Part shown: in pieces, positions 11,633 to 24,438 of the stretch
How positions within the stretch are numbered: the first letter of the stretch is position 1
Layout of the letters: each line of letters starts with the position of its first letter
Origin: a virus
Taxonomy: Duplodnaviria; Heunggongvirae; Uroviricota; Caudoviricetes
Reading direction: 5' to 3' (one strand)
Virus record (IMG/VR): IMGVR_UViG_638341084_000009
Length of the DNA stretch: 24,438 bases
The notes under the pieces: model-generated
Databases searched by the model: none
Seen by the model: the letters and a program-made list of their open reading frames with translations, nothing else
What the model was told of the DNA's origin: nothing
Position numbers and translations under genes: made by a program

Positions 11633-11986
11633 TTATCGTCGCCGGTTAACGGCGGGTGGTTGCCCACGGTTGAGCCAGAGATAACAGCTGCCCCCGTCAT
11701 CCGGAGAAACACGATCCACCCAGAATATCTCACCATTAATGGTCAGCGTGTCACCACGCCGCACAGCACGAACCGTATCCGTCCGCACAAATAATGACGG
11801 GCTGCTTCCTTCAATACGGACCCCGCTACCGGCAAATCCCAGCGACTCCGGATCGTCAAAAACCCCCTGAACTTCTCCGCCACACTGTGCCCCCGAGGTG
11901 AACTGCGCACTGATGCCCATCACTTCAACAATCGTACTGTCCACCCCGGCAAGGGCAGCATCAAAGGCATTCTGAAAATCACGCAT
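11633..11986 (-). CDS. FII: Head-tail joining protein FII
   Basis: …FDAALAGVDSTIVEVMGISAQFTSGAQCGGEVQGVFDDPES…VRIEGSSPSLFVRTDTVRAVRRGDTLTINGEIFWVDRVSPDDGGSCYLWLNRGQPPAVNRRR matches lambda gpFII to the C-terminus. Start chosen at the third in-frame ATG (11986) by analogy with lambda and because it follows the FI stop. Alternative starts at 12004 and 12022. Confidence 0.75.
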   Translation of the reverse strand: MRDFQNAFDAALAGVDSTIVEVMGISAQFTSGAQCGGEVQGVFDDPESLGFAGSGVRIEGSSPSLFVRTDTVRAVRRGDTLTINGEIFWVDRVSPDDGGSCYLWLNRGQPPAVNRRR

Positions 11987-13490: not shown

Positions 13491-13838
13491 TTACGGCAGC
13501 GCCGCGTGACTCAGGGCACTGCCGGCAAAGGCATTTGCCTTTTTGTGTTCATCCACACTTTCAGGCCAGCGGATTGCCTCCGTCGCAAAGGTCCCCGACT
13601 TGTAATAGGTCAGTACCGTCTCTGTGCCTTCAAGCGGCAGTACCAGTATGCCAACNGCACTACCGGCTTTCTGTCCGTCCCAGACCACCAGTTTCCCGNT
13701 NGCTTCATCCAGCATCAGGGGCGTCAGTGCCGGTGTTGCCGAGGAAATCCCGCTGCTGCCTGTGGCGGTATGAGCCGGATCATTACCGGCAAAAATACGT
13801 ACTTCCGCACGCTGTTCAGTGATGGTTTTCGTTACCAT
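13491..13838 (-). CDS. D: Head decoration protein D
   Basis: 115 aa with motifs NDPAHTATGSSGISSATPALTPLMLDE…KLVVWDG…YKSGTF…KANAFAG matching lambda gpD. Contains three ambiguous bases (13655, 13699, 13701), giving X residues. Confidence 0.85.
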   Translation of the reverse strand: MVTKTITEQRAEVRIFAGNDPAHTATGSSGISSATPALTPLMLDEXXGKLVVWDGQKAGSXVGILVLPLEGTETVLTYYKSGTFATEAIRWPESVDEHKKANAFAGSALSHAALP

Positions 13839-13874
13839 ATTGTAAAAACCTCCTGTTGATGGTCAGCACTGACT

Positions 13875-15380
13875 TCATGGCATNGNCATGAGCATTTTCA
13901 CGTCCGCATCACCGTCTGCTGACGTCTGTGGCACGCCACCCTGTACCGCTGCCGGTGAATGGTTCGCCATGATGCGTTCAAACAGGGCGGTTGTGGATGC
14001 AGAGACCGGTTCTGCCTTACCTGATCCCGCAGCCAGCACAGCCCGGGCGCTCTCCACAGTCATTCCCGGGCAGGCAGCCAGCTGTTCAGCCTGCGCCTCA
14101 NCCCCTTTTGCCTCATCCAGTGCCATGATCTGATCACGGAGTGAGGGTCCGGCATCCGCCTGCGGTGAAGCAGCCAGGATCGGGCGGGCTTTTTCCACCG
14201 TCATCTCCGGCATCGCCGCCAGCGTTGCCGCCAGTTGTTCACGACCGTTCGCTTCTTCACACGCCATAATGCGATCGGCTTCACTCTGCGTGGATGCCAC
14301 CGGCTGCTGCGGTGCCGCCGCGGCCAGAATCGCCCGGGCCTGTNCAACGCTCATGCCCTGTTGTCCTGCCAGCATCGTGGCAAGCTGTTCACGTCCTTTC
14401 GCTTCCTGGCATGTCAGGATCCCCATCACTCGCTGGTTCTCCTGCGCGGCGGCTTCCGTTGCAGTTAATTGCGGCATAGTGCCTCCTCTGACATTACTGT
14501 TCAGCGCCGTGGCCATCACACTGATGGCATCCGACGCATTGACTAATTCATCCGCCAGCCCGGCNTCAATGCCGGACTGACCTTCAAAAACGGCGGCCTC
14601 TGTTCCCGTGACAGCATCAACAGACAGACCGGTATACATCGCCACTTTTTCAGCAAACATCCGGCGCGCCGCATCAATGCGCTGTTGCATGTCCTGGCGA
14701 ACCTCTGCCGGCAACGCTTCAAACTGATTGCCATCCACCTTGTGCGCCCCTGAGTAAATCAGCGTGATATCAACACCGGCCTGCGCCAGATGACCGGCAT
14801 AGCTGACATGGCTCATCATCACGCCAATGGAGCCGATACGGGATGTCTGGGTAACCAGCCGTCGGGAGCAGGCCGACGCCAGCAGCATGGCTGCAGAGCA
14901 GGCCGTGTCATTGCACAGTGCCCAGACCGGCTTCTGCTGACGGAGGCGGTAAATCATGTCAGCGCAGTCAAACGCGCCGGCGGCCTGCCCGCCCGGACTG
15001 TCAATGTCCAGCAGTACGCCCCGCACCTGGCTATCCGCCATTGCCTGCTGAAGACAGGCGACAATGCCGTCATAGCCAGTCATTCCGGAAAATGGCCGCA
15101 TCCCCCCCAGCCGGTGCACCAGCGTGCCGGTCACCGGCAGTACCGCAATACCGTTCACCACCCGGTAAACACGGGCCGGTCGTTTACCTCCGGCCATGTA
15201 CTCGTCCGTTTCAGCCAGCATTCCGGGAGCATCAAGCTGTACCTGCTGTTGTGGTACCGAAAGACTTGCTGCCCCCATCTCGCGCCCGAGCGCGCAAAAG
15301 AAAACCCGCGCATAGGCGGGCTCCAGAAGCAGCGGTTCATTGAATGCTGCGGCAATAATGTGTGAAAGATTACGTCTCAC
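13875..15380 (-). CDS. C: Capsid assembly protease C (ClpP/S49-like) with C-terminal scaffold domain (Nu3 equivalent nested in frame)
   Basis: 501 aa, MRRNLSHIIAAAFNEPLLLEPAYARVFFCALGREMG…YRVVNGIAVLPVTGTLV…WALCNDTACSAAMLLASACSRRLVTQTSRIGSIGVMMSH… matches lambda gpC. The C-terminal 180 aa is Ala/Gln-rich scaffold-like sequence with three repeats. Contains ambiguous bases. Confidence 0.85.
   Translation of the reverse strand: MRRNLSHIIAAAFNEPLLLEPAYARVFFCALGREMGAASLSVPQQQVQLDAPGMLAETDEYMAGGKRPARVYRVVNGIAVLPVTGTLVHRLGGMRPFSGMTGYDGIVACLQQAMADSQVRGVLLDIDSPGGQAAGAFDCADMIYRLRQQKPVWALCNDTACSAAMLLASACSRRLVTQTSRIGSIGVMMSHVSYAGHLAQAGVDITLIYSGAHKVDGNQFEALPAEVRQDMQQRIDAARRMFAEKVAMYTGLSVDAVTGTEAAVFEGQSGIXAGLADELVNASDAISVMATALNSNVRGGTMPQLTATEAAAQENQRVMGILTCQEAKGREQLATMLAGQQGMSVXQARAILAAAAPQQPVASTQSEADRIMACEEANGREQLAATLAAMPEMTVEKARPILAASPQADAGPSLRDQIMALDEAKGXEAQAEQLAACPGMTVESARAVLAAGSGKAEPVSASTTALFERIMANHSPAAVQGGVPQTSADGDADVKMLMXMP
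14020..14430. repeat. Three degenerate tandem repeats of about 100 bp inside the 3' part of C (scaffold/Nu3 domain)
   Basis: Protein level: CQEAKGREQLATMLAGQQGMSV-QARAILAAA / ACEEANGREQLAATLAAMPEMTVEKARPILAAS / ALDEAKG-EAQAEQLAACPGMTVESARAVLAAG. The corresponding DNA units are visibly similar. Boundaries approximate. Confidence 0.5.
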
Positions 15381-17165: not shown

Positions 17166-19077
17166 TCACTCCTCCGGACAGCTTCGCTGCCAGTTCTTTC
17201 AGGGTTGGCCGGGTCGTCTCTTCTTCCCGGGATTTTGCCAGTACAGCCAGATCAAGCTGCCAGCGTTGCACGGACACACGTAATGCCGCGTAGGCATACA
17301 CCAGGCAGTCCAGCGCTTCGTTACGCCGCTTTTTGTTATCCCACAGCAGACGCATCTTTCCTTTTTCCCACTTCTCCACAAGCTCTTCCGCGACCAGTTG
17401 CTGCGCCTCTGTCTGCGAAAAAATCTCCGGATCATCAGGAAAACGGATGGCATACGACGTGGCTTCATCCGCAGGAGTGGGATCGGCTTTCATACGGGCA
17501 TAGAGAATTTCTTTTGCGGTGTCCGTCCCCACTTCACACAGATACACGCCCCGCTGATTGCGGGTTTTCGGCATGGTGATCACCGGCTTGCCATAGACAG
17601 ATGCGCCTTTTACCGGCAGCACCCGGAAAACACCGTGTTTTTTTGACCTCTGATAGACAATTTCACCATCGATCCCCCCGGTGTCCCAGCAGACACGGGA
17701 AATGGTCATTTCGGTTCCGTCTGCATGGCAGTATTTTTTGTTGATCGCCGCATCCACACGTAACAGCGTCTCTTCCTCATCGGGACGGCCCATAATGATG
17801 ATTTTATCCACCAGAAAGGCTTCCTCTCCCGGTGCCCATCCCCAGACATACATCTCAAAACGGTTTCGCTGCGAGTCAATGCCCGCCGTCAGATAAACCA
17901 CCCGGGCAGGCACCGCCGCCGTGTAACGCACCACCTTATCCATCAGTACCTGGTGATCGAGTTTTTCGCCCACGGCCTCTTCCCAGGTCTCGCCCAGCGT
18001 GGTGTTCACAAAGGTTTTCAGGCCGTTGGGATCTTTCAGTGCATCCAGCCAGTCATAGACTATCTGTATCCAGGTGGTGAACGGACTGTACGCCGTCCAG
18101 ATATGGAACGTGATGGAGCGCGGCGGCGGAATTTCATCCCCCCGGGCGCTGAAAAACATCAGGCCGTCACGGGTCCACATGCCCGTGTTTTCACAGATCC
18201 AGCGCCCGTTACTCTGGTCAAGCTCAGACTGATGGATCACGCAGCCATGATGTTCACAGAGGTAGAAAACGCTTTCGGGGCTGTCCTTCTCCCATTTAAG
18301 GCCAAAAGGCGTGGATTCATCGCCAAATTTCAGATACTGCGCCTCCCCACAGTGCGGGCAGGGCACATAGAAACGCATGAAATGCGCCGACTCGTTGGCC
18401 GCTTTTTCGATCTGGCAGGTACCTTTGATTTTAGGCGTCGAGCCGCGAATGGATTTTGGCCATACAGAGCCCTCAATACGCTTATCCCCCAGCAGGGTTG
18501 GCGAGCCCTCTTTTTCGACATCCGGCTCGAACGAGGAAAGCTCGTCATAGCAGACCACGTCCACGGATTTTTCACGGTAGTTTTTGGCGGCTGCACCGCC
18601 CAGGCACCAGAAACCGACGCCCGATGAAAAGCGTTTCAGCGTGAGAGTATTGTCACGATGTTTACGACCCAGCCATGGGGAAAGGTCTTTCAGGCATGGC
18701 ACGTTCCGAATCGTCGCCTCCACGTGAGACTTCATAAAATCTTCAGCGGCAGAATCCGTGGGCTGAAAAAGCAGACTGTTTCGGGATTTATGCTCAATAA
18801 AATACCCGACCACCCCCAGCAACATCTTTGTATAGCCAACACGGGCAGATTTAATCAGGTTAACCGTGCGAACCTGGTCGTTACCCATACAGTTCATAAT
18901 GGCGATCTGGAATGGCAGCGTTTTCCATTCTCCCTCACCATATGAAGATTCTTTAGGCAGATAATAATTTTGATCAGCCCATTCAACTGCCGTCATTGGT
19001 ACAACCCTGACCAGAGGCTGCAGCGCAACCGAAACGGCAGCCATCATATTATTCAGTTGTTGCTCTGATATATTCAT
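17149..19077 (-). CDS. A: Terminase large subunit A
   Basis: From ATG at 19075-19077: MNISEQQLNNMMAAVSVALQP…TAVEWADQNYYLPKESSYGEGEWKTLPFQIAIMNCMG… through …KRRNEALDCLVYAYAALRVSVQRWQLDL, colinear with lambda gpA. Overlaps the Nu1 3' end by 29 nt, as in lambda. Track start at 19134 is an over-extension. Confidence 0.9.
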   Translation of the reverse strand: MNISEQQLNNMMAAVSVALQPLVRVVPMTAVEWADQNYYLPKESSYGEGEWKTLPFQIAIMNCMGNDQVRTVNLIKSARVGYTKMLLGVVGYFIEHKSRNSLLFQPTDSAAEDFMKSHVEATIRNVPCLKDLSPWLGRKHRDNTLTLKRFSSGVGFWCLGGAAAKNYREKSVDVVCYDELSSFEPDVEKEGSPTLLGDKRIEGSVWPKSIRGSTPKIKGTCQIEKAANESAHFMRFYVPCPHCGEAQYLKFGDESTPFGLKWEKDSPESVFYLCEHHGCVIHQSELDQSNGRWICENTGMWTRDGLMFFSARGDEIPPPRSITFHIWTAYSPFTTWIQIVYDWLDALKDPNGLKTFVNTTLGETWEEAVGEKLDHQVLMDKVVRYTAAVPARVVYLTAGIDSQRNRFEMYVWGWAPGEEAFLVDKIIIMGRPDEEETLLRVDAAINKKYCHADGTEMTISRVCWDTGGIDGEIVYQRSKKHGVFRVLPVKGASVYGKPVITMPKTRNQRGVYLCEVGTDTAKEILYARMKADPTPADEATSYAIRFPDDPEIFSQTEAQQLVAEELVEKWEKGKMRLLWDNKKRRNEALDCLVYAYAALRVSVQRWQLDLAVLAKSREEETTRPTLKELAAKLSGGVNGYSR

Positions 19078-19558
19078 CGAGTAAATCCGGTAATTTATCC
19101 CCTGCCCGCGCACACTGATTTGCCCCCTTCGCAATAAGGGTTTTCAGATGGTCAAGATGGCGCGGTGTTAAATCAGGAAACTGTCGCTGCATGGATAAAG
19201 GGATGGAATCAAGCGTACTGGATAACGCCATTGCCAGCTTACTGAGGGCAAAAATACAGAACCCGGTGTCAATCAGTTTTCCTTTTGACACCTCATTTTT
19301 TAACTGCTGTGTAACAGCCTGTTCTGCTGTCAGTTCCCATCTGGCAATAAGCAATTTCTCCTCATAGTCGTCTTCGCTATCGCCATCAGGCACATCGTTT
19401 TTACTTCTCCTCAGATACGATATGTAAAAATCGCGCCAGGCATCCAGATCCAGTTGCCCTCGCTTATTCGATATCGGGGCACCCGGCAATTTCTGCAATC
19501 TGCGAAGCTGGCGATCGGTCAGACTTAAATGCCTGGCAACTTCAGTCTGCGTAGCCAC
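19049..19558 (-). CDS. Nu1: Terminase small subunit Nu1-like (divergent N-terminal HTH domain, lambda-like C-terminal half)
   Basis: Apparent GTG start at 19556-19558 preceded by AGGTGAGGA. N-terminus (V/M)ATQTEVARHLSLTDRQLRRLQKLPGAP looks like an HTH but is unlike lambda Nu1. C-terminal half …DTGFCIFALSKLAMALSSTLDSIPLSMQRQFPDLTPRHLDHLKTLIAKG…LLDEYI is clearly Nu1-like. Confidence 0.8.
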   Translation of the reverse strand: MATQTEVARHLSLTDRQLRRLQKLPGAPISNKRGQLDLDAWRDFYISYLRRSKNDVPDGDSEDDYEEKLLIARWELTAEQAVTQQLKNEVSKGKLIDTGFCIFALSKLAMALSSTLDSIPLSMQRQFPDLTPRHLDHLKTLIAKGANQCARAGDKLPDLLDEYIRATTE

Positions 19559-19597
19559 TCCTCACCTCGCAAAAACTCTCACCTCACAATCACAACA

Positions 19598-19705
19598 AAA
19601 CCGGTCATGTCCGGTTTACATGTCTGTTTTTTGTTCATGTCCGGTTCACAGAAGACCTGTTTTTATATTTTTCATATAGTTAACTTGAAGAGAAACCGGA
19701 CATGG
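19598..19705. promoter_or_regulatory. cosB-like region: three copies of an 11 bp element CATGTCCGGTT (two direct, one inverted), candidate terminase small-subunit R sites
   Basis: Copies at 19606-19616 and 19636-19646 (plus orientation) and 19694-19704 (inverted, as AACCGGACATG). The first is embedded in a perfect inverted repeat AAACCGG-N6-CCGGTTT (19598-19617). An A/T-rich tract (19655-19690) between copies 2 and 3 could be a bend or IHF site. All lie between the Nu1 start and cosN. Confidence 0.55.
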
Positions 19706-19741
19706 ATCCCGGAAAATTTTCATAAATAGCGAAAACCCGCG

Positions 19742-19753
19742 AGGTCGCCGCCC
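19742..19753. other. cosN, cohesive end site (12 nt overhang region identical to lambda)
   Basis: 19709-19753 reverse-complemented reads GGGCGGCGACCTCGCGGGTTTTCGCTATTTATGAAAATTTTCCGG, which I recognise as the lambda left cohesive end and adjacent bases. Spacing to the Nu1 start is about 185 bp, as in lambda. Confidence 0.8.
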
Positions 19754-19789
19754 CGTAACCTGTCGGATCGCCGGAAAGGACCCACGAAA

Positions 19790-19806
19790 ATGATAATAAT
19801 TATCAT
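19790..19806. repeat. Inverted repeat ATGATAA-TAA-TTATCAT just outside cosN (cosQ-side), candidate protein-binding site
   Basis: 7 bp perfect arms with a 3 bp centre, read directly. My recollection is that lambda has a similar palindrome at the equivalent position near its right end. Confidence 0.5.
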
Positions 19807-19960
19807 CTACATGAGGTTTATCACGACATGTGTGTACGCCATCAAACCACGAGAAATAATCAATTATTACGCAGGTATCGTATTAATTGATCTGCATCAA
19901 ATTAGCGTAAAAGCAACTTCAGATAATACAAATCAGCAACACTGAATACGGGGCAACATT

Positions 19961-20185
19961 ATGTCATCAAAGAACAGAACCCGCAGAACAACAACCCGCA
20001 ACATCCGATTTCCAAACCAGATAATTGAACAAATTAACATCGCTCTTGACCTGAAAGGTTCAGGTAATTTTTCAGCGTGGGTTATTGAAGCCTGCAGAAG
20101 AAGATTAATTAATGAAAAATATTCTCAATTTGTACCCAACAAAGACAAACACGACCAGAGCACCTGTTCAGACAGGTTTACTTAA
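19961..20185 (+). CDS. Small ribbon-helix-helix-like protein (YlcI/DUF3950-like, near cos), function unknown
   Basis: 74 aa, MSSKNRTRRTTTRNIRFPNQIIEQINIALDLKGSGNFSAWVIEACRRRL…: basic N-terminus, short beta-strand (NIRFP) then two helices, the RHH/Arc-MetJ pattern. Opposite strand to the late operon, followed by a strong terminator. I recall a similar small ORF at this position in lambda and DLP12 (ylcI). Confidence 0.6.
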   Translation: MSSKNRTRRTTTRNIRFPNQIIEQINIALDLKGSGNFSAWVIEACRRRLINEKYSQFVPNKDKHDQSTCSDRFT

Positions 20186-20203
20186 ACGACTTATATATGA
20201 CAC

Positions 20204-20231
20204 AAAAAGCGACCACTAAAGTCGCTTTTTC
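20204..20231. terminator. Bidirectional rho-independent terminator between the convergent RHH gene and PerC-like gene
   Basis: AAAA-GCGAC-(CACTAAA)-GTCGC-TTTTT: perfect stem with an A-run on one side and a T-run on the other, so it works on both strands. Confidence 0.7.
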
Positions 20232-20266
20232 TTATGGTAACAGGCAATAACTCTCTCAGATATTTT

Positions 20267-20581
20267 TTAGCATTTTTTTGACCGCGCGTTTCCGGACGTA
20301 TTCTGTTCTCCTGTCCCTTTATATCGTCGGAATACCCGCCGCTCTTCAAATCCCATTCCCAACTCAGAATGTAGTCTGTTGACCGCTTGTTTTATTTCGG
20401 TCAGGTTCACCGGTGAAACCGGAGTCCGGCGCGCCTTACGCAAACACTCTGCTCGTTTCTGTGCCGCCACTTTTCTTTTCTGGTCATCACTTAGCTGTAC
20501 CATCACTTTTGCCCATCGTTCAGCTGCTCTCCGGTACAGTCCTTTTTTCTCCAGACATTCTGCCACGTGATCATGTAGCAT
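20267..20581 (-). CDS. PerC-like (Pch-family) putative transcriptional activator, phage moron
   Basis: ATG at 20579-20581 with GGAGG RBS 7 nt upstream. 104 aa, MLHDHVAECLEKKGLYRRAAERWAKVMVQLSDDQKRKVAAQKRAECLRK…; the AE-LE--GL-RRAA-RW--VM N-terminal pattern matches my recollection of the PerC family. Gene is well supported; family assignment is from memory. Confidence 0.55.
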   Translation of the reverse strand: MLHDHVAECLEKKGLYRRAAERWAKVMVQLSDDQKRKVAAQKRAECLRKARRTPVSPVNLTEIKQAVNRLHSELGMGFEERRVFRRYKGTGEQNTSGNARSKKC

Positions 20582-21045
20582 AAGTGACCTCCGATTATCT
20601 ACAGACTGCCATCCTGAATTTACCTTCCCTTAATGAAATAACAATAAAAAACAAACCACGCAAAAACAATAAAACAACACACAAAAAAACTAAATAATAA
20701 ACAAAAATAATCACCTTATTTTATTATTTTTTGAGGGAGCAATTACTGAACAAAAAACGCTGACTATATACTCAAAACCAAACAACTATTCTGCCAATCA
20801 GGTATCATGGCAACACACGGAATTACCGTGTTTTTGCCTTCTCTGCCCATACAATACGGGCATATACTTCATTCTCTATTGTAATATTTCTATCCATGTG
20901 CCCCACTCCATTTACCTGTAAATAATATTCAAAATATTTATCACAGAAATCGTTTTTGGCCATGAACTGAGCACACTATAAAGTCCGGAACTGACTCTTT
21001 GTTAAATTACCTTAACGTTACCAGTAACACCTTCATAACAAAACA
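20582..21045. other. 464 bp AT-rich non-coding spacer between Rz and the PerC-like gene, with a strongly A+C-skewed tract at about 20636-20715
   Basis: GC content visibly far below the flanking phage genes (about 60 percent A in places). 20641-20700 contains 1 G and 5 T in 60 nt. No ORF of 60 aa or more on either strand. Probable promoter/leader for the PerC-like gene. Confidence 0.5.
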
Positions 21046-21513
21046 TCACGGTATACACTGGGTACGGATATATTCCTGTGCTCCTTCCAGTTGCTTCTGC
21101 ATTGCCATCAGCCGTTCTCTGAGGATGAAATAATCCCGTTCAGCGGTGTCTGCCAGTCGGGGGCCGGTTGCATTATCCACGCCGGAGGTGCCGGTGGCTT
21201 CACGCACGGTACCGGAGCAGGTGGCGTTGATCCGCAGGCGCTTACGACCAGCGGCAACATCAGCACGCAGAGTTTCATTTTCAGCTCTCGCATCGGCTAA
21301 TTCCCTCGAGTATCTGGCATCAAGTGCAGCGACATCACGCTGACGCATCTGCATGTCAGTAATTGCCGCGTTCGCCAGCTTCAGTTCTCTGACATTTTTG
21401 TCGCGCTGGGCTTTGTAGGTAATGGCGTTATCACGGTAATGATTCAGCCCCAGACTAAGCGCACCACAGGCCACCAGCAGGGCAATGATGACCACGCACA
21501 GTACGCGGTTCAT
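21046..21513 (-). CDS. Rz: Inner-membrane spanin subunit Rz (i-spanin)
   Basis: 155 aa, [66 protein letters not shown]… nearly colinear with lambda Rz. Confidence 0.9.
21108..21293 (-). CDS. Rz1: Outer-membrane lipoprotein spanin subunit Rz1 (o-spanin), embedded in the +1 frame of Rz
   Basis: 61 aa, [61 protein letters not shown]: lipobox LVVSAC, Pro-rich, matches lambda Rz1, and is fully nested in Rz. Confidence 0.8.
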
Positions 21514-21514
21514 T

Positions 21515-21613
21515 TCACCACCAGCGTATCTGACCGATGAAATAACCGGAGGCCATAATCACAAACACCAGCCAGATAAGAATGAACTTCCAGGTGGATA
21601 ATTTTTCAGCCAT
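21515..21613 (-). CDS. Hypothetical 32 aa single-pass membrane peptide, translationally coupled to Rz
   Basis: ATG at 21611-21613 with [41 protein letters not shown] has one hydrophobic helix. Its stop TGA sits 1 nt before the Rz ATG. No homolog recognised from memory, and a short ORF could be fortuitous. Confidence 0.35.
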
Positions 21614-21691
21614 CACTCGAATCTCCCGAATCAGTTTGCTAAAATCAAACACACTTTCTCCTTTGACTTTTCCGGAGTCAGGAAACACAAA

Positions 21692-21723
21692 ACCCCCGCT
21701 TGGTGCCAACAAACGGGGTTTTT
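21692..21723 (+). terminator. Hairpin with T-run in the R to Rz intergenic gap (candidate plus-strand or weak bidirectional terminator)
   Basis: Stem CCCCGCTTG / CAAACGGGG (8 of 9 pairs) with 7 nt loop, followed by TTTTTACTTTT on the plus strand and preceded by an A-rich tract. Confidence 0.35.
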
Positions 21724-21812
21724 ACTTTTATTCACTTACGTTTCGCCAGTTCGCAGGATTTCATGTTATCCGCCCGCGTGGCCATGCCTTATTTTTCAGC
21801 AAAATATTCTGC

Positions 21813-22346
21813 TTATCTGTCGATACCCCAGCACGCCAGCGCGCTCTCCTGGTCACGACGGGATACCTGACCGTAGCAGTTGTTTGAACGAATACGGCAG
21901 TCTCTGCCACCGTCCTTAATCCACCAGCGAATCGCCTCACACGCTCCCCTGCGATCACCTGCATTAATTCGTTTATAAAACGTCGACGGGAAACACTTAC
22001 CGGGACCAATGTTGTACGGACAGAATGACGCGATCCCCGCTTTCTGGGGTTCGCTCAATGGCACTTTGATGTTTTTCTCCACCCATGCCAGCGCCTTATC
22101 ACGCTCAATGGCGTTGACCTGGTCGCATTTTTCCTTCGACAGTTTCATACCGGGAAAAACGGGTTTTCCATCCACCATCGTGGCCCCCCGACAGATGGTC
22201 CAGATGCCGGAACCATCGCGGTATGCCGTTGTGTGGTTACCCTCTTTTTCGTCCAGAAACTGGTCAAGTATCTGAGGAGCAGACGCGCCTGCAGCAATCA
22301 GCGCCAGAACAGCAGCTGACAGGCCGTATTTGATTTTTGCGCTCAT
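21813..22346 (-). CDS. R: SAR endolysin (phage lysozyme, T4-lysozyme/GH24 type with N-terminal signal-anchor-release domain)
   Basis: 177 aa. N-terminus MSAKIKYGLSAAVLALIAAGASAPQ is a weakly hydrophobic Gly/Ala-rich SAR-type segment. Followed by an E…D/C…T triad region (EGNHTTAYRDGSGIWTICRG) and …RRDQESALACWG, resembling phage 21 R and DLP12 RrrD. Confidence 0.85.
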   Translation of the reverse strand: MSAKIKYGLSAAVLALIAAGASAPQILDQFLDEKEGNHTTAYRDGSGIWTICRGATMVDGKPVFPGMKLSKEKCDQVNAIERDKALAWVEKNIKVPLSEPQKAGIASFCPYNIGPGKCFPSTFYKRINAGDRRGACEAIRWWIKDGGRDCRIRSNNCYGQVSRRDQESALACWGIDR

Positions 22347-22401
22347 GGATATTTATCAGGATGCTACCAATGAAAGATACTGGAAAGCCAACTGCAAAAA
22401 G

Positions 22402-22716
22402 CTAACAACACGTAATCGAGTTATCAGAACTGTTAATTTTTATGGTATTCCGCGCCTCTGAACAGGGGCGCGTTTCTGGCAACAGCTCGTCCTCTTCACA
22501 TAACCCGGCAGCAACATCCAGGAAGACCTGTCTGATGCTCCTTCTGGCTGCTGCCTCATAAAACTCCAGCGCGGCACCTTCAACACGGTCCAGCGAGATG
22601 TCCAGGTCAAAAATTTCACCGTCAAAGCGTTTTTTGTCCCGTAACGCTAAAGTTACCGTAACTTTATTCTCAAAATTGCGGATCCCTTTCACAATCAGTT
22701 CATAGTTTTGAGTCAT
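22402..22716 (-). CDS. YdfR-like protein (DUF1327-like) of unknown function, inserted between holin and endolysin
   Basis: 104 aa, MTQNYELIVKGIRNFENKVTVTLALRDKKRFDGEIFDLDISLDRVEGAALEFYEAAARRSIRQVFLDVAAGL…. Strong GGGGAGAG RBS, 4 nt after the holin stop. No predicted TM segment. Same location as ydfR in E. coli Qin (essQ-ydfR-rrrQ), as I recall it. Confidence 0.65.
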   Translation of the reverse strand: MTQNYELIVKGIRNFENKVTVTLALRDKKRFDGEIFDLDISLDRVEGAALEFYEAAARRSIRQVFLDVAAGLCEEDELLPETRPCSEARNTIKINSSDNSITCC

Positions 22717-22720
22717 TGAA

Positions 22721-22936
22721 TTACTCTCCCCGTGCAGCCTTACGACGGTCCTCTCTGATTTTGAAATACAGGTTAGTCAGATATGTCAGCAGCCCAAACA
22801 GCAGACTCCCCAGCACGCCTATTGCCGCCCACTGAGACGGGGAAACCCTGTCCAGCAACTGCAGGAACCAGTAGCCCGTTCCCACCGCTGACGTGGTGTA
22901 TGACACACCTGTTGTGATTTTTTCCATCTGGTACAT
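22721..22936 (-). CDS. S: Class II pinholin (S21-like) with dual-start motif
   Basis: [71 protein letters not shown], nearly colinear with phage 21 S21 as I recall it. Met1-Tyr-Gln-Met4 gives the antiholin/holin dual starts at 22936 and 22927. The ORF-track start at 23014 is an upstream over-extension. Confidence 0.85.
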
Positions 22937-22971
22937 ACCCCGTCTCCCGTTATCCGGAAGCTGACAACAAT

Positions 22972-23002
22972 AAAAAAAGCCACCAGTTAAGTACTGATGG
23001 CT
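22972..23002 (-). terminator. Rho-independent terminator on the late (minus) strand between the esterase gene and S
   Basis: Minus-strand stem AGCCATCAG / CTGGTGGCT (8 of 9 pairs, 7 nt loop) followed by TTTTTTT. An A-run precedes it on the plus strand. Confidence 0.55.
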
Positions 23003-23086
23003 CTGATAACTCATGCAGGCATCTCAGACGACCCACTGACACTACCGGTGAGTTTAACGATACCTTCCATTTGACTGGCTCACTTT

Positions 23087-24438
23087 TTATGATGATGCCG
23101 GTGCATTTATCTCCAGCACCAGACTTTCTATCTCAACGCCATACGCTGCATTTTTGGTAATATCCGTCAGCGTCAGCGCATTCAGCCCCAGTGTCAGACT
23201 GTCTTTTATGACCTGGAATGCCGGGCCAGCCACTCCATTCAGTTTCGGAGTAACCGTGGCACTGCCGGCGGTGAACACCAGCTCCAGCGTCTGCCAGTCG
23301 TTACCGTAATCGCCGAACTCCCCCAGCTTCGTGTTTCCGGCTTTCCTGTGATGCATCAGATTCACTCTGCCGTCAGTGGTCTGAGTGAAGTGCGACATCA
23401 GGAACGGATTACCGGTACCCGTCATCGCCACACCATCAGGAACGGGAGCGTCCGTATACAGATAAATCCCCAGCCCGAACTGATTGTTGGTCAGTGCGCC
23501 TGAGAGGCGGAACTTACAGGTCAGTCTGCCGCCCTGTGTCAGCAGGGTAATTGCGTCATCCACCGGATGCATCAGGGACCAGGTTTTATTGCTCTGCTTG
23601 GTGATCTTAAATACACCATCTGACAACTGAATTCCGCCGTCCTTAATGGTCCAGCCCTGCGCAGCAGCATCTCCGGCTGTCGGCATCAGGGAGATTGTGC
23701 GTATGGATGCATCTTCAGACGGCCCCGATGGCGTGTTGCCGCCGGGCGAGGGTTTGATTTCCGGTGCCTTACCACTGATGAAGGCTGAGGTGCGCCCGGC
23801 TGCGTTCAGAATAGCGGTTGCCAGACGATCCGGAATAATGCTCCTGCGCGCCCATGAACTGAAATGTGTCGGGCGGTTTGATGATACCTGGTTTCCATTC
23901 GTTCTCGATGCCGCACCGTAATATCCTGATGCCGGAATATCCGGATCTTCTGCCGGCGCGTTAGTGGCGGTATTGACGCCGTTACCGTCTGTCATGAAGG
24001 GCACAAAATAAACGCCCTCACTCTCCCTGTTTTTATACCCGCCGTACACGGTGTCGTACTGGGTAGCGTATGTATTTTTCCAGTAATACGTCGTGTCACC
24101 ACAAATCCACGGCACATCTGCAGCACTGCCACCATGACACTGCGCGTTAAACACAGTGAGGTCAGCACGAAACTGCTTCAGCATGGCTGTAAACAGCGCA
24201 GGTTGCTGTGCGTAGGTGGCGGCGCTCATGTCAAACTCTCCCTGCATCCAGCACACCGCCAGCAACACATTTTTCGGGTTCTTCTGTAATGCAGCTTTAG
24301 TGCGCGCAATCAGGTCCTGATATAACGGTTTACCCACCCCCCAGCGCGCCGAATCCTGGCTGGCCCCCGCGTCCGCACTGAATGTCCCCTCCGCGCCCTG
24401 GGTGAATGCCGAACCACCACGACAGCATGGTACCAGCA
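23087..24438 (-). CDS. SASA-domain esterase-like protein (NanS-p / sialate O-acetylesterase-like prophage protein), 5' partial (N-terminus beyond window)
   Basis: Minus-strand frame is open from the window edge with no stop: …SAFTQGAEGTFSADAGASQDSARWGVGKPLYQDLIART…VLLAVCWMQGEFD… then a long Gly/Thr/Ser-rich C-terminal domain ending …EINAPASS. The position directly upstream of the holin matches nanS-p-type genes in Stx-type and other EHEC prophages. Assignment is from memory of that family. Confidence 0.5.
   Translation of the reverse strand, partial: LVPCCRGGSAFTQGAEGTFSADAGASQDSARWGVGKPLYQDLIARTKAALQKNPKNVLLAVCWMQGEFDMSAATYAQQPALFTAMLKQFRADLTVFNAQCHGGSAADVPWICGDTTYYWKNTYATQYDTVYGGYKNRESEGVYFVPFMTDGNGVNTATNAPAEDPDIPASGYYGAASRTNGNQVSSNRPTHFSSWARRSIIPDRLATAILNAAGRTSAFISGKAPEIKPSPGGNTPSGPSEDASIRTISLMPTAGDAAAQGWTIKDGGIQLSDGVFKITKQSNKTWSLMHPVDDAITLLTQGGRLTCKFRLSGALTNNQFGLGIYLYTDAPVPDGVAMTGTGNPFLMSHFTQTTDGRVNLMHHRKAGNTKLGEFGDYGNDWQTLELVFTAGSATVTPKLNGVAGPAFQVIKDSLTLGLNALTLTDITKNAAYGVEIESLVLEINAPASS

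Follow-up and report, generated by a model that had tools for sequence, protein, structure and literature searches.

The esterase gene at the window edge

The virus record IMGVR_UViG_638341084_000009, a stretch of 24,438 nucleotides (the whole of which is called the window below), ends inside an open reading frame (ORF) encoding a prophage sialate O-acetylesterase of the NanS-p type. On the minus strand, the frame is open for 449 codons up to position 24436, with neither a stop nor a frameshift in its translation; positions 24437-24438 form a partial codon at the edge, and the window holds no start codon for this ORF. An intact gene of 617 amino acids is present in Escherichia coli O111:H2 strain 12A (NZ_CP077479.1), whose DNA is 100% identical to the last 4,939 bases of the window. 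With the residue numbers of this full-length relative, the parts of the gene within the window are as follows.

23087..24436, minus strand: partial nanS-p coding sequence, residues 169-617 of the 617-aa esterase, with its TAA stop at 23087-23089
23801..24436, minus strand: C-terminal part of the SGNH/SASA catalytic domain, residues 169-380, from the match of the full-length relative to PDB 3PT5
24230-24250, minus strand: block III motif WMQGEFD, position converted from residues and checked on the DNA
23864-23875, minus strand: block IV motif RPTH with the presumed catalytic His359, position converted and checked in the same way
23681..23800, minus strand: Ser/Pro/Gly-rich interdomain linker, residues 381-420 (S 17.5%, P 15%, G 12.5%), between two PDB-matching regions
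23090..23680, minus strand: predicted C-terminal lectin-like jelly-roll domain (DUF6645), residues 421-617, from Pfam and PDB 6YP6

An earlier note on this DNA had taken the ORF for a NanS-p-type prophage sialate O-acetylesterase, and homology searches bear this out with scores well above chance level. The fragment matches Pfam SASA (E = 4.5e-08), covering only profile positions 86-157 of 226 because the start of the domain is missing from it, as well as Pfam DUF6645 (E = 8.4e-18) and the PHROG family phrog_143 (E = 5.7e-225, profile positions 178-632 of 634). BLASTP against L0105/ST933Wp42 of phage 933W, a check proposed in the same note, gives 47% identity over 464 aa (E = 9e-135), placing the two proteins in the same family. 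The proposed comparison with E. coli NanS has the same outcome, residues 60-379 of the full-length relative matching NanS/YjhS (PDB 3PT5) with E = 3e-121. The motif quoted in the note, LLAVCWMQGEFD, is found in the translation of the esterase. An NCBIfam search of the fragment assigned no family.

Pfam recognizes DUF1737 (residues 3-49), SASA and DUF6645 (residues 467-577) in the intact protein of strain 12A. The DUF1737 match, with E = 1.1e-15 in full-length relatives, concerns a region that lies beyond the window. Block I of the SGNH motifs, GQSN with the nucleophile Ser73, is also outside the window and was read in the strain 12A gene. In the alignment with 3PT5, Ser73 and His359 fall on chain residues 30 and 312, which we take to be the Ser19/His301 catalytic pair of NanS. 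The block nomenclature is that of PMC10462455, where the RPTH variant of block IV is on record for prophage 86, as against RASH/RSSH. The chromosomal NanS (YjhS) has a homologous SGNH domain in which the serine and the histidine align and the block motifs are the same. However, NanS consists of this one domain, measures about 326 aa and has its gene in a sialic-acid locus, whereas the prophage protein adds DUF1737 and a lectin-like domain and is encoded in a phage late operon.

Residues 421-613 of the full-length relative match PDB 6YP6, the crystallised C-terminal domain of the phi24B NanS-p (E = 4.3e-29). By this match, the C-terminal region is a folded lectin-like beta-sandwich, a divergent variant of the phi24B/933W domain, and not a low-complexity tail. 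Residues 421-617 contain T 11.7%, G 11.7%, L 11.2% and A 9.1%. The earlier note had described a SASA-type region followed by a long Gly/Thr/Ser-rich C-terminal tract. The former is recovered by Pfam; the latter gives way to the jelly-roll match, only the 40-residue linker being Ser/Pro-rich. The aromatic residues proposed to bind carbohydrate in the phi24B/933W proteins (Y510, Y515, Y540 and F611) correspond in the alignment to F488, Y493, F518 and L584, so that three of the four positions stay aromatic.

The same DUF1737-SGNH/SASA-jelly-roll architecture is found in the 933W NanS-p (L0105 / z1466 / ST933Wp42) and in vb_24B_21 (gp84) of phi24B. These proteins share the SGNH block motifs of the esterase described here, and their genes occupy a like position in the late operon, between the tRNA/STnc100 region and the holin gene. 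Identity to the 933W protein is 56% for the whole protein and 47% for the fragment within the window. Compared with 933W and phi24B, the DUF1737 loop is shorter, block IV reads RPTH in place of RASH/RSSH, and the C-terminal domain belongs to a divergent group with leucine in place of F611. Among alleles carried by phages, almost all of the nearest ones (97.3-97.7% DNA identity) come from phages converting to Shiga toxin (Stx) 1a. They include YYZ-2008, H-19B and Stx1_14040, and are joined by the allele of prophage PP2 of E. coli E2348/69. The full-length protein is 94% identical to these esterases, which have the same domain variants including RPTH; in YYZ-2008 a small RNA (sRNA) of the STnc100 type lies upstream.

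The window coincides with contig AAJX02000051.1 over its whole 24,438 bp (2,000 of 2,000 bases identical, with the coordinates in register); the contig is part of GCA_000167895.4, a draft assembly of E. coli B171. AAJX00000000 is the draft genome of the prototype enteropathogenic E. coli (EPEC) strain B171 (PMC4464170). The window contains eight N bases, from 13656 to 14565. Its left end falls inside a transposase gene of the IS66 family of insertion sequences and its right end inside the esterase gene, while six places of the strain 12A genome match the esterase region. Repeats are thus found at both contig ends, and this is where a draft assembly breaks.

The earlier note had called the ORF 5'-truncated. 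The lack of a start codon in the window would agree with a genuinely 5'-truncated pseudogene remnant in the genome, but the window edge coincides with the contig end, and the 449 codons are free of frameshifts and stops. Furthermore, strain 12A, identical over the last 4.9 kb, has the intact 617-aa gene, and with six matching places in that genome a repeat-induced assembly break is to be expected. A pseudogene is therefore extremely improbable. The edge being the contig end, the strain 12A gene being intact and the region being repeated, we correct the note on this point: the missing 5' part is an assembly artefact, not a pseudogene junction.

We conclude with high confidence that an intact nanS-p gene, of which the ORF makes up the 3' three quarters, is located in the late operon of a lambda-like prophage free of Shiga toxin in EPEC strain B171, and that nothing but the contig end cuts it. 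The gene, its architecture and the module order fit biology that is already described. The significance of the finding is accordingly low, since it adds one more example, from an EPEC genome, of a prophage esterase that is well described and occurs in multiple copies; its practical outcome is the recognition of an apparent truncation as an assembly artefact at a repeated gene.

An exact match to the whole window was sought among complete E. coli genomes and none was found. Strain 12A exhibits 10 real differences from the window over 18.9 kb, none of them within the last 8 kb. Strain FDAARGOS_1059 is 99.6% identical across the whole window; over 13.9 kb, the 89 differences comprise the 8 Ns of the window and 73 in the esterase gene, the rest being elsewhere. 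The differences in the esterase cluster at 23305-24404, where strain 12A is identical to the window. The esterase allele looks mosaic, as if swapped by recombination among the several nanS-p copies of these genomes.

The region upstream of the esterase

The earlier note had expected toxin or other cargo genes just beyond the window edge, and had proposed an extended search for stxAB, tRNA genes and Q. We read the continuation from the complete genomes of strains 12A and FDAARGOS_1059 as proxies, not from B171. The two agree on the upstream layout, their junction regions being 100% identical to each other. Proceeding away from the esterase start, they contain the following.

A 489-bp gap next to the esterase start
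Three tRNA genes, tRNA-Arg(tct), tRNA-Arg(tcg) and a CAT-anticodon tRNA annotated as Ile, equal to the ileZ-argN-argO set of 933W
A gene for a 352-aa N6/N4 DNA methyltransferase
A 65-aa ORF
A gene for a DUF1133 protein, a Q-like antiterminator according to PHROGs (phrog_753, E = 5.3e-81)
Genes for RusA and a DUF968 protein

The tRNA genes and a Q-like gene are thus present as anticipated, whereas stx was not found in the upstream region of strain 12A or FDAARGOS_1059, where the longest ORF in the 489-bp gap is 77 aa. This gap holds an sRNA of the STnc100 family on the esterase strand (Rfam RF02076, 138 bits against a gathering score of 47). In strain 12A, the stretch 660-915 bases past the window edge (19600-19854 of the locus extract) holds this sRNA and, beside it on the opposite strand, a terminator-bearing element where 933W has AsxR and YYZ-2008 has AgvB. 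The element gave no match to AsxR or AgvB at E<=0.1. By eye, it resembles the EPEC sRNA candidate 'E2348C_1409.E2348C_1408.IGR' obtained by RIL-seq, which ligates and sequences interacting RNAs (supplement of PMC8550237).

In the reference phages, Rfam gives the order stx2B, STnc100, AsxR (opposite strand) and nanS-p for 933W, and stx1B, STnc100, AgvB (opposite strand) and nanS-p for YYZ-2008. This shared module order defines the toxin slot as the interval between the last tRNA and STnc100. The interval measures 76 bp in strains 12A and FDAARGOS_1059, and Stx phages hold stxAB there. The toxin slot is empty in the nearest complete genomes. What follows past the edge in these genomes is STnc100, three tRNAs, the methyltransferase gene and the Q-like gene instead of a toxin. 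As far as the toxin is concerned, this is the ordinary Q/pR' region without cargo that the note itself had named as speaking against its expectation. The source strain also speaks against it, B171 being an EPEC and this pathotype being defined by the absence of Shiga-toxin genes. In comparison with 933W, the proxies of the B171 prophage lack both stx2AB upstream and the opposite-strand AsxR, and the carrier is a lambda-type siphovirus prophage whereas 933W is a short-tailed phage. The Stx1 phages have stx1AB upstream and another head module, unlike the B171 prophage.

The region nevertheless varies among related prophages, which carry upstream of the esterase TerB and DUF3927 genes, IraM, an AraC-type regulator, an Rce1-like protein or the methyltransferase. 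In each of ten loci that have a lambda-type head and share an identical large terminase, an esterase of this architecture (611-617 aa, including DUF1737) is encoded before a P21-type holin. The genes upstream of the esterase differ among these ten loci, and no Stx family was found in them. Of 5,426 complete E. coli genomes, at least 1,007 contain the junction of tRNA, STnc100 and nanS-p (>=80% in one place). For this count, aligned pieces were joined if the distance between them was below about 950 bases, which excludes a stx-sized insertion. In other genomes, that position is taken by IraM, DUF3927, TerB-family or TolA-like genes. The cargo hotspot named in the earlier note is thus real for the prophage family, but in this lineage it holds standard components of the family only, namely the tRNAs, the methyltransferase and the sRNA.

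The affinity of the esterase to alleles of Stx1a-converting phages, together with the common order of stx1B, STnc100 and nanS-p in Stx1 phages, raises the question whether the prophage descends from a Stx1-converting phage that lost stx1AB, the empty slot being a deletion scar. A preprint on the Pas sRNAs also links the esterase-holin block to stx1 in phages, but in fewer than 3% of chromosomal copies. The homology to Stx1 phages, however, ends at STnc100, and the tRNAs and methyltransferase further upstream are of the 933W/O111 type, not stx1 flanks. The head, Q and spacer modules are unlike those of Stx1 phages, the gap has no visible stx remnant, and the stx-free junction is as widespread as counted above. 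Modular recombination accounts for these data with no specific loss event, and we consider descent from a Stx1-converting phage unlikely.

The module order of this stx-free lineage is now laid out as Q-like antiterminator, methyltransferase, tRNAs, the stx slot, STnc100, the opposite-strand sRNA position, nanS-p, (PasA/PasC) and holin. The locus may be used as a stx-free comparator for the recombination of stx, sRNAs and nanS-p alleles among lambdoid prophages.

Proposed function and a possible role in the virion

The sequences show which gene this is, how its domains and catalytic motifs are arranged, the order of the genes and what lies upstream in the nearest complete genomes; the enzyme activity, induction-dependent expression and fitness effect would follow by analogy with the literature on homologues. 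The NanS-p proteins known from EDL933 and O104:H4 strains have 9-O-acetyl esterase activity, support growth on Neu5,9Ac2 and de-O-acetylate mucin glycans (review PMC8065619). Transcripts of nanS-p increase by 1-2.4 logs with mitomycin C (PMC10462455).

By this analogy, nanS-p would be transcribed along with the late genes from a promoter dependent on the Q-like antiterminator, and the esterase would leave the cell through lysis by holin and endolysin. By inspection, the N-terminus of the full-length relative (MAFKHYDVVRAASPSDL...) has no hydrophobic stretch like that of a signal peptide, which makes phage lysis a likely release route. The released enzyme would remove 9-O-acetyl groups from Neu5,9Ac2 and mucin sialoglycans, and the de-O-acetylation may let the surviving lysogen population use sialic acid. 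The jelly-roll domain would probably keep the enzyme on glycans.

Several points weigh against an intact esterase of this function in the B171 prophage. The catalytic serine and DUF1737 were read from a relative identical over the shared 4.9 kb, not from B171. The C-terminal domain shares only about one third of its residues with its crystallised counterpart, and leucine takes the place of one of the four binding-site aromatics. The prophage is probably defective, its tail-tip gene J being cut by an IS66-family element near 806. Finally, the phi24B homologue was found on the virion, so that host fitness may not be the whole story. According to that 2026 preprint (10.64898/2026.04.10.717836), gp84 of phi24B is a processed capsid-decorating protein, of which the DUF1737 hexamer binds the central hexons of the T=9 capsid.

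The preprint suggests an alternative in which the esterase mainly serves the phage, with DUF1737 as a capsid anchor, the esterase and lectin domains being displayed on or processed with the virion, and host fitness being secondary. Possible roles would be mucus adherence or access to O-acetylated receptors. Besides the reported capsid decoration in phi24B, this alternative is consistent with the presence of DUF1737 in the full-length relative, the first 33 residues of which are nearly identical to 933W, and with the location of the gene in a late operon beside morphogenesis genes. On the other hand, the head encoded here is of the lambda E/D type (Phage_cap_E and an HDPD decoration protein) and not of the phi24B type, and the loop that carries the Tyr42 anchor of gp84 is shortened and different. 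YYZ-2008 shares the short-loop variant of DUF1737, and its head is of a third type, in which protease and major head protein are fused. Occurring with at least two unrelated head modules, the variant does not track capsid type. The disruption of J in this prophage also argues against a service to the virion. We therefore hold it quite unlikely that the esterase mainly serves the phage. The proposal that the NanS-p of lambda-head prophages such as this one is also virion-associated, anchored by DUF1737 and proteolytically processed as in phi24B, extends the phi24B case by analogy and appears very doubtful. If true, the multiple nanS-p copies of EPEC and enterohaemorrhagic E. coli would chiefly serve the phage as structural or adherence factors and would not in the first place be metabolic morons of the host.

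Lysis cassette, spacer and the rest of the prophage

An esterase upstream of the lysis genes S, R and Rz, as read in the earlier note, is confirmed by a Pfam-identified cassette on the same strand, and the same order is found in 933W and Stx1 phages. The RefSeq annotation of the identical strain 12A DNA agrees with the cassette at 21046..22936 (minus strand). Together with the spacer, its features are as follows.

22937..23086, minus strand: esterase-holin spacer, 150 bp (terminator scan; alignment with the E2348/69 and YYZ-2008 spacers)
22721-22936, minus strand: P21-type holin (Pfam PF04971)
22402-22716, minus strand: DUF1327 (Pfam PF07041)
21813-22346, minus strand: lysozyme (Pfam PF00959)
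21046-21513, minus strand: Rz (Pfam PF03245)

Just upstream of the holin gene, the terminator scan reveals one hairpin (23004-22976, minus strand) that has a T run behind it, like an intrinsic terminator. Judged by eye, this hairpin is similar to the pre-holin hairpin of E2348/69 PP2 and YYZ-2008, GCCGTCAG...CTGGCGGC plus a T run. In PP2, the sRNA PasA was mapped at 743499-743415 (PMC8550237 table S6), and YYZ-2008 (NC_011356) is a PasA-containing representative phage in the Pas sRNA preprint. The esterase-holin spacer is 447 bp long in both PP2 and YYZ-2008 as compared with 150 bp here. A PasA/PasC sRNA in the spacer of the window was ruled out, the segment being absent in the alignment with E2348/69 and YYZ-2008.

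The 31 nt at 23102-23132 (minus strand), at the 3' end of the esterase gene, match exactly the E2348C_1246 site (0 such matches expected by chance), which was ligated to PasA in RIL-seq (supplement of PMC8550237). An exact PasA target site is thus kept at the end of the esterase gene although PasA is absent from the adjoining spacer. Rfam detected nothing in the window at the gathering threshold, nor at E<=1 in 19000-24438; this carries no weight for PasA/PasC, since the PasA/PasC loci of E2348/69 are also undetected by Rfam. No sigma-70-like promoter was found in 22300-23400, and a repeat search and composition profile of the region revealed nothing unusual.

Beyond Rz follow a gene of the PerC family, those of the terminase and a complete module of lambda-type head and tail genes. 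The PerC-family transcriptional activator gene (20267-20581, minus strand; Pfam PerC, E = 3.8e-44) separates Rz from the terminase genes and has a non-coding AT-rich flank upstream, at 20600-20999 (33% G+C). Possibly this gene is a moron for a virulence regulator like Pch/PerC. Positions 11636-11986 encode a rare variant of the head-tail joining protein, by which the B171 contig was traced. A gene for a Cu/Zn superoxide dismutase, sodC (3418-3945, plus strand; Pfam Sod_Cu, E = 2e-32), is placed on the opposite strand between tail genes I and J and is a cargo gene within the tail module.

Tail-tip gene J starts at 3284 on the minus strand, encodes 866 aa only and loses its homology where the IS66-family element begins; a transposase fragment of the element is found at 79-768 (plus strand). 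In FDAARGOS_1059, the element in the J region is annotated as ISEc22, and in strain 12A J is missing altogether with IS679 in its place. Past the tail region of the prophage in strain 12A (4974-8394 of the locus extract, outside the window) are pseudogenes of nleB2, nleC and nleH and an intact nleF, a cluster that is a typical exchangeable type III effector locus.

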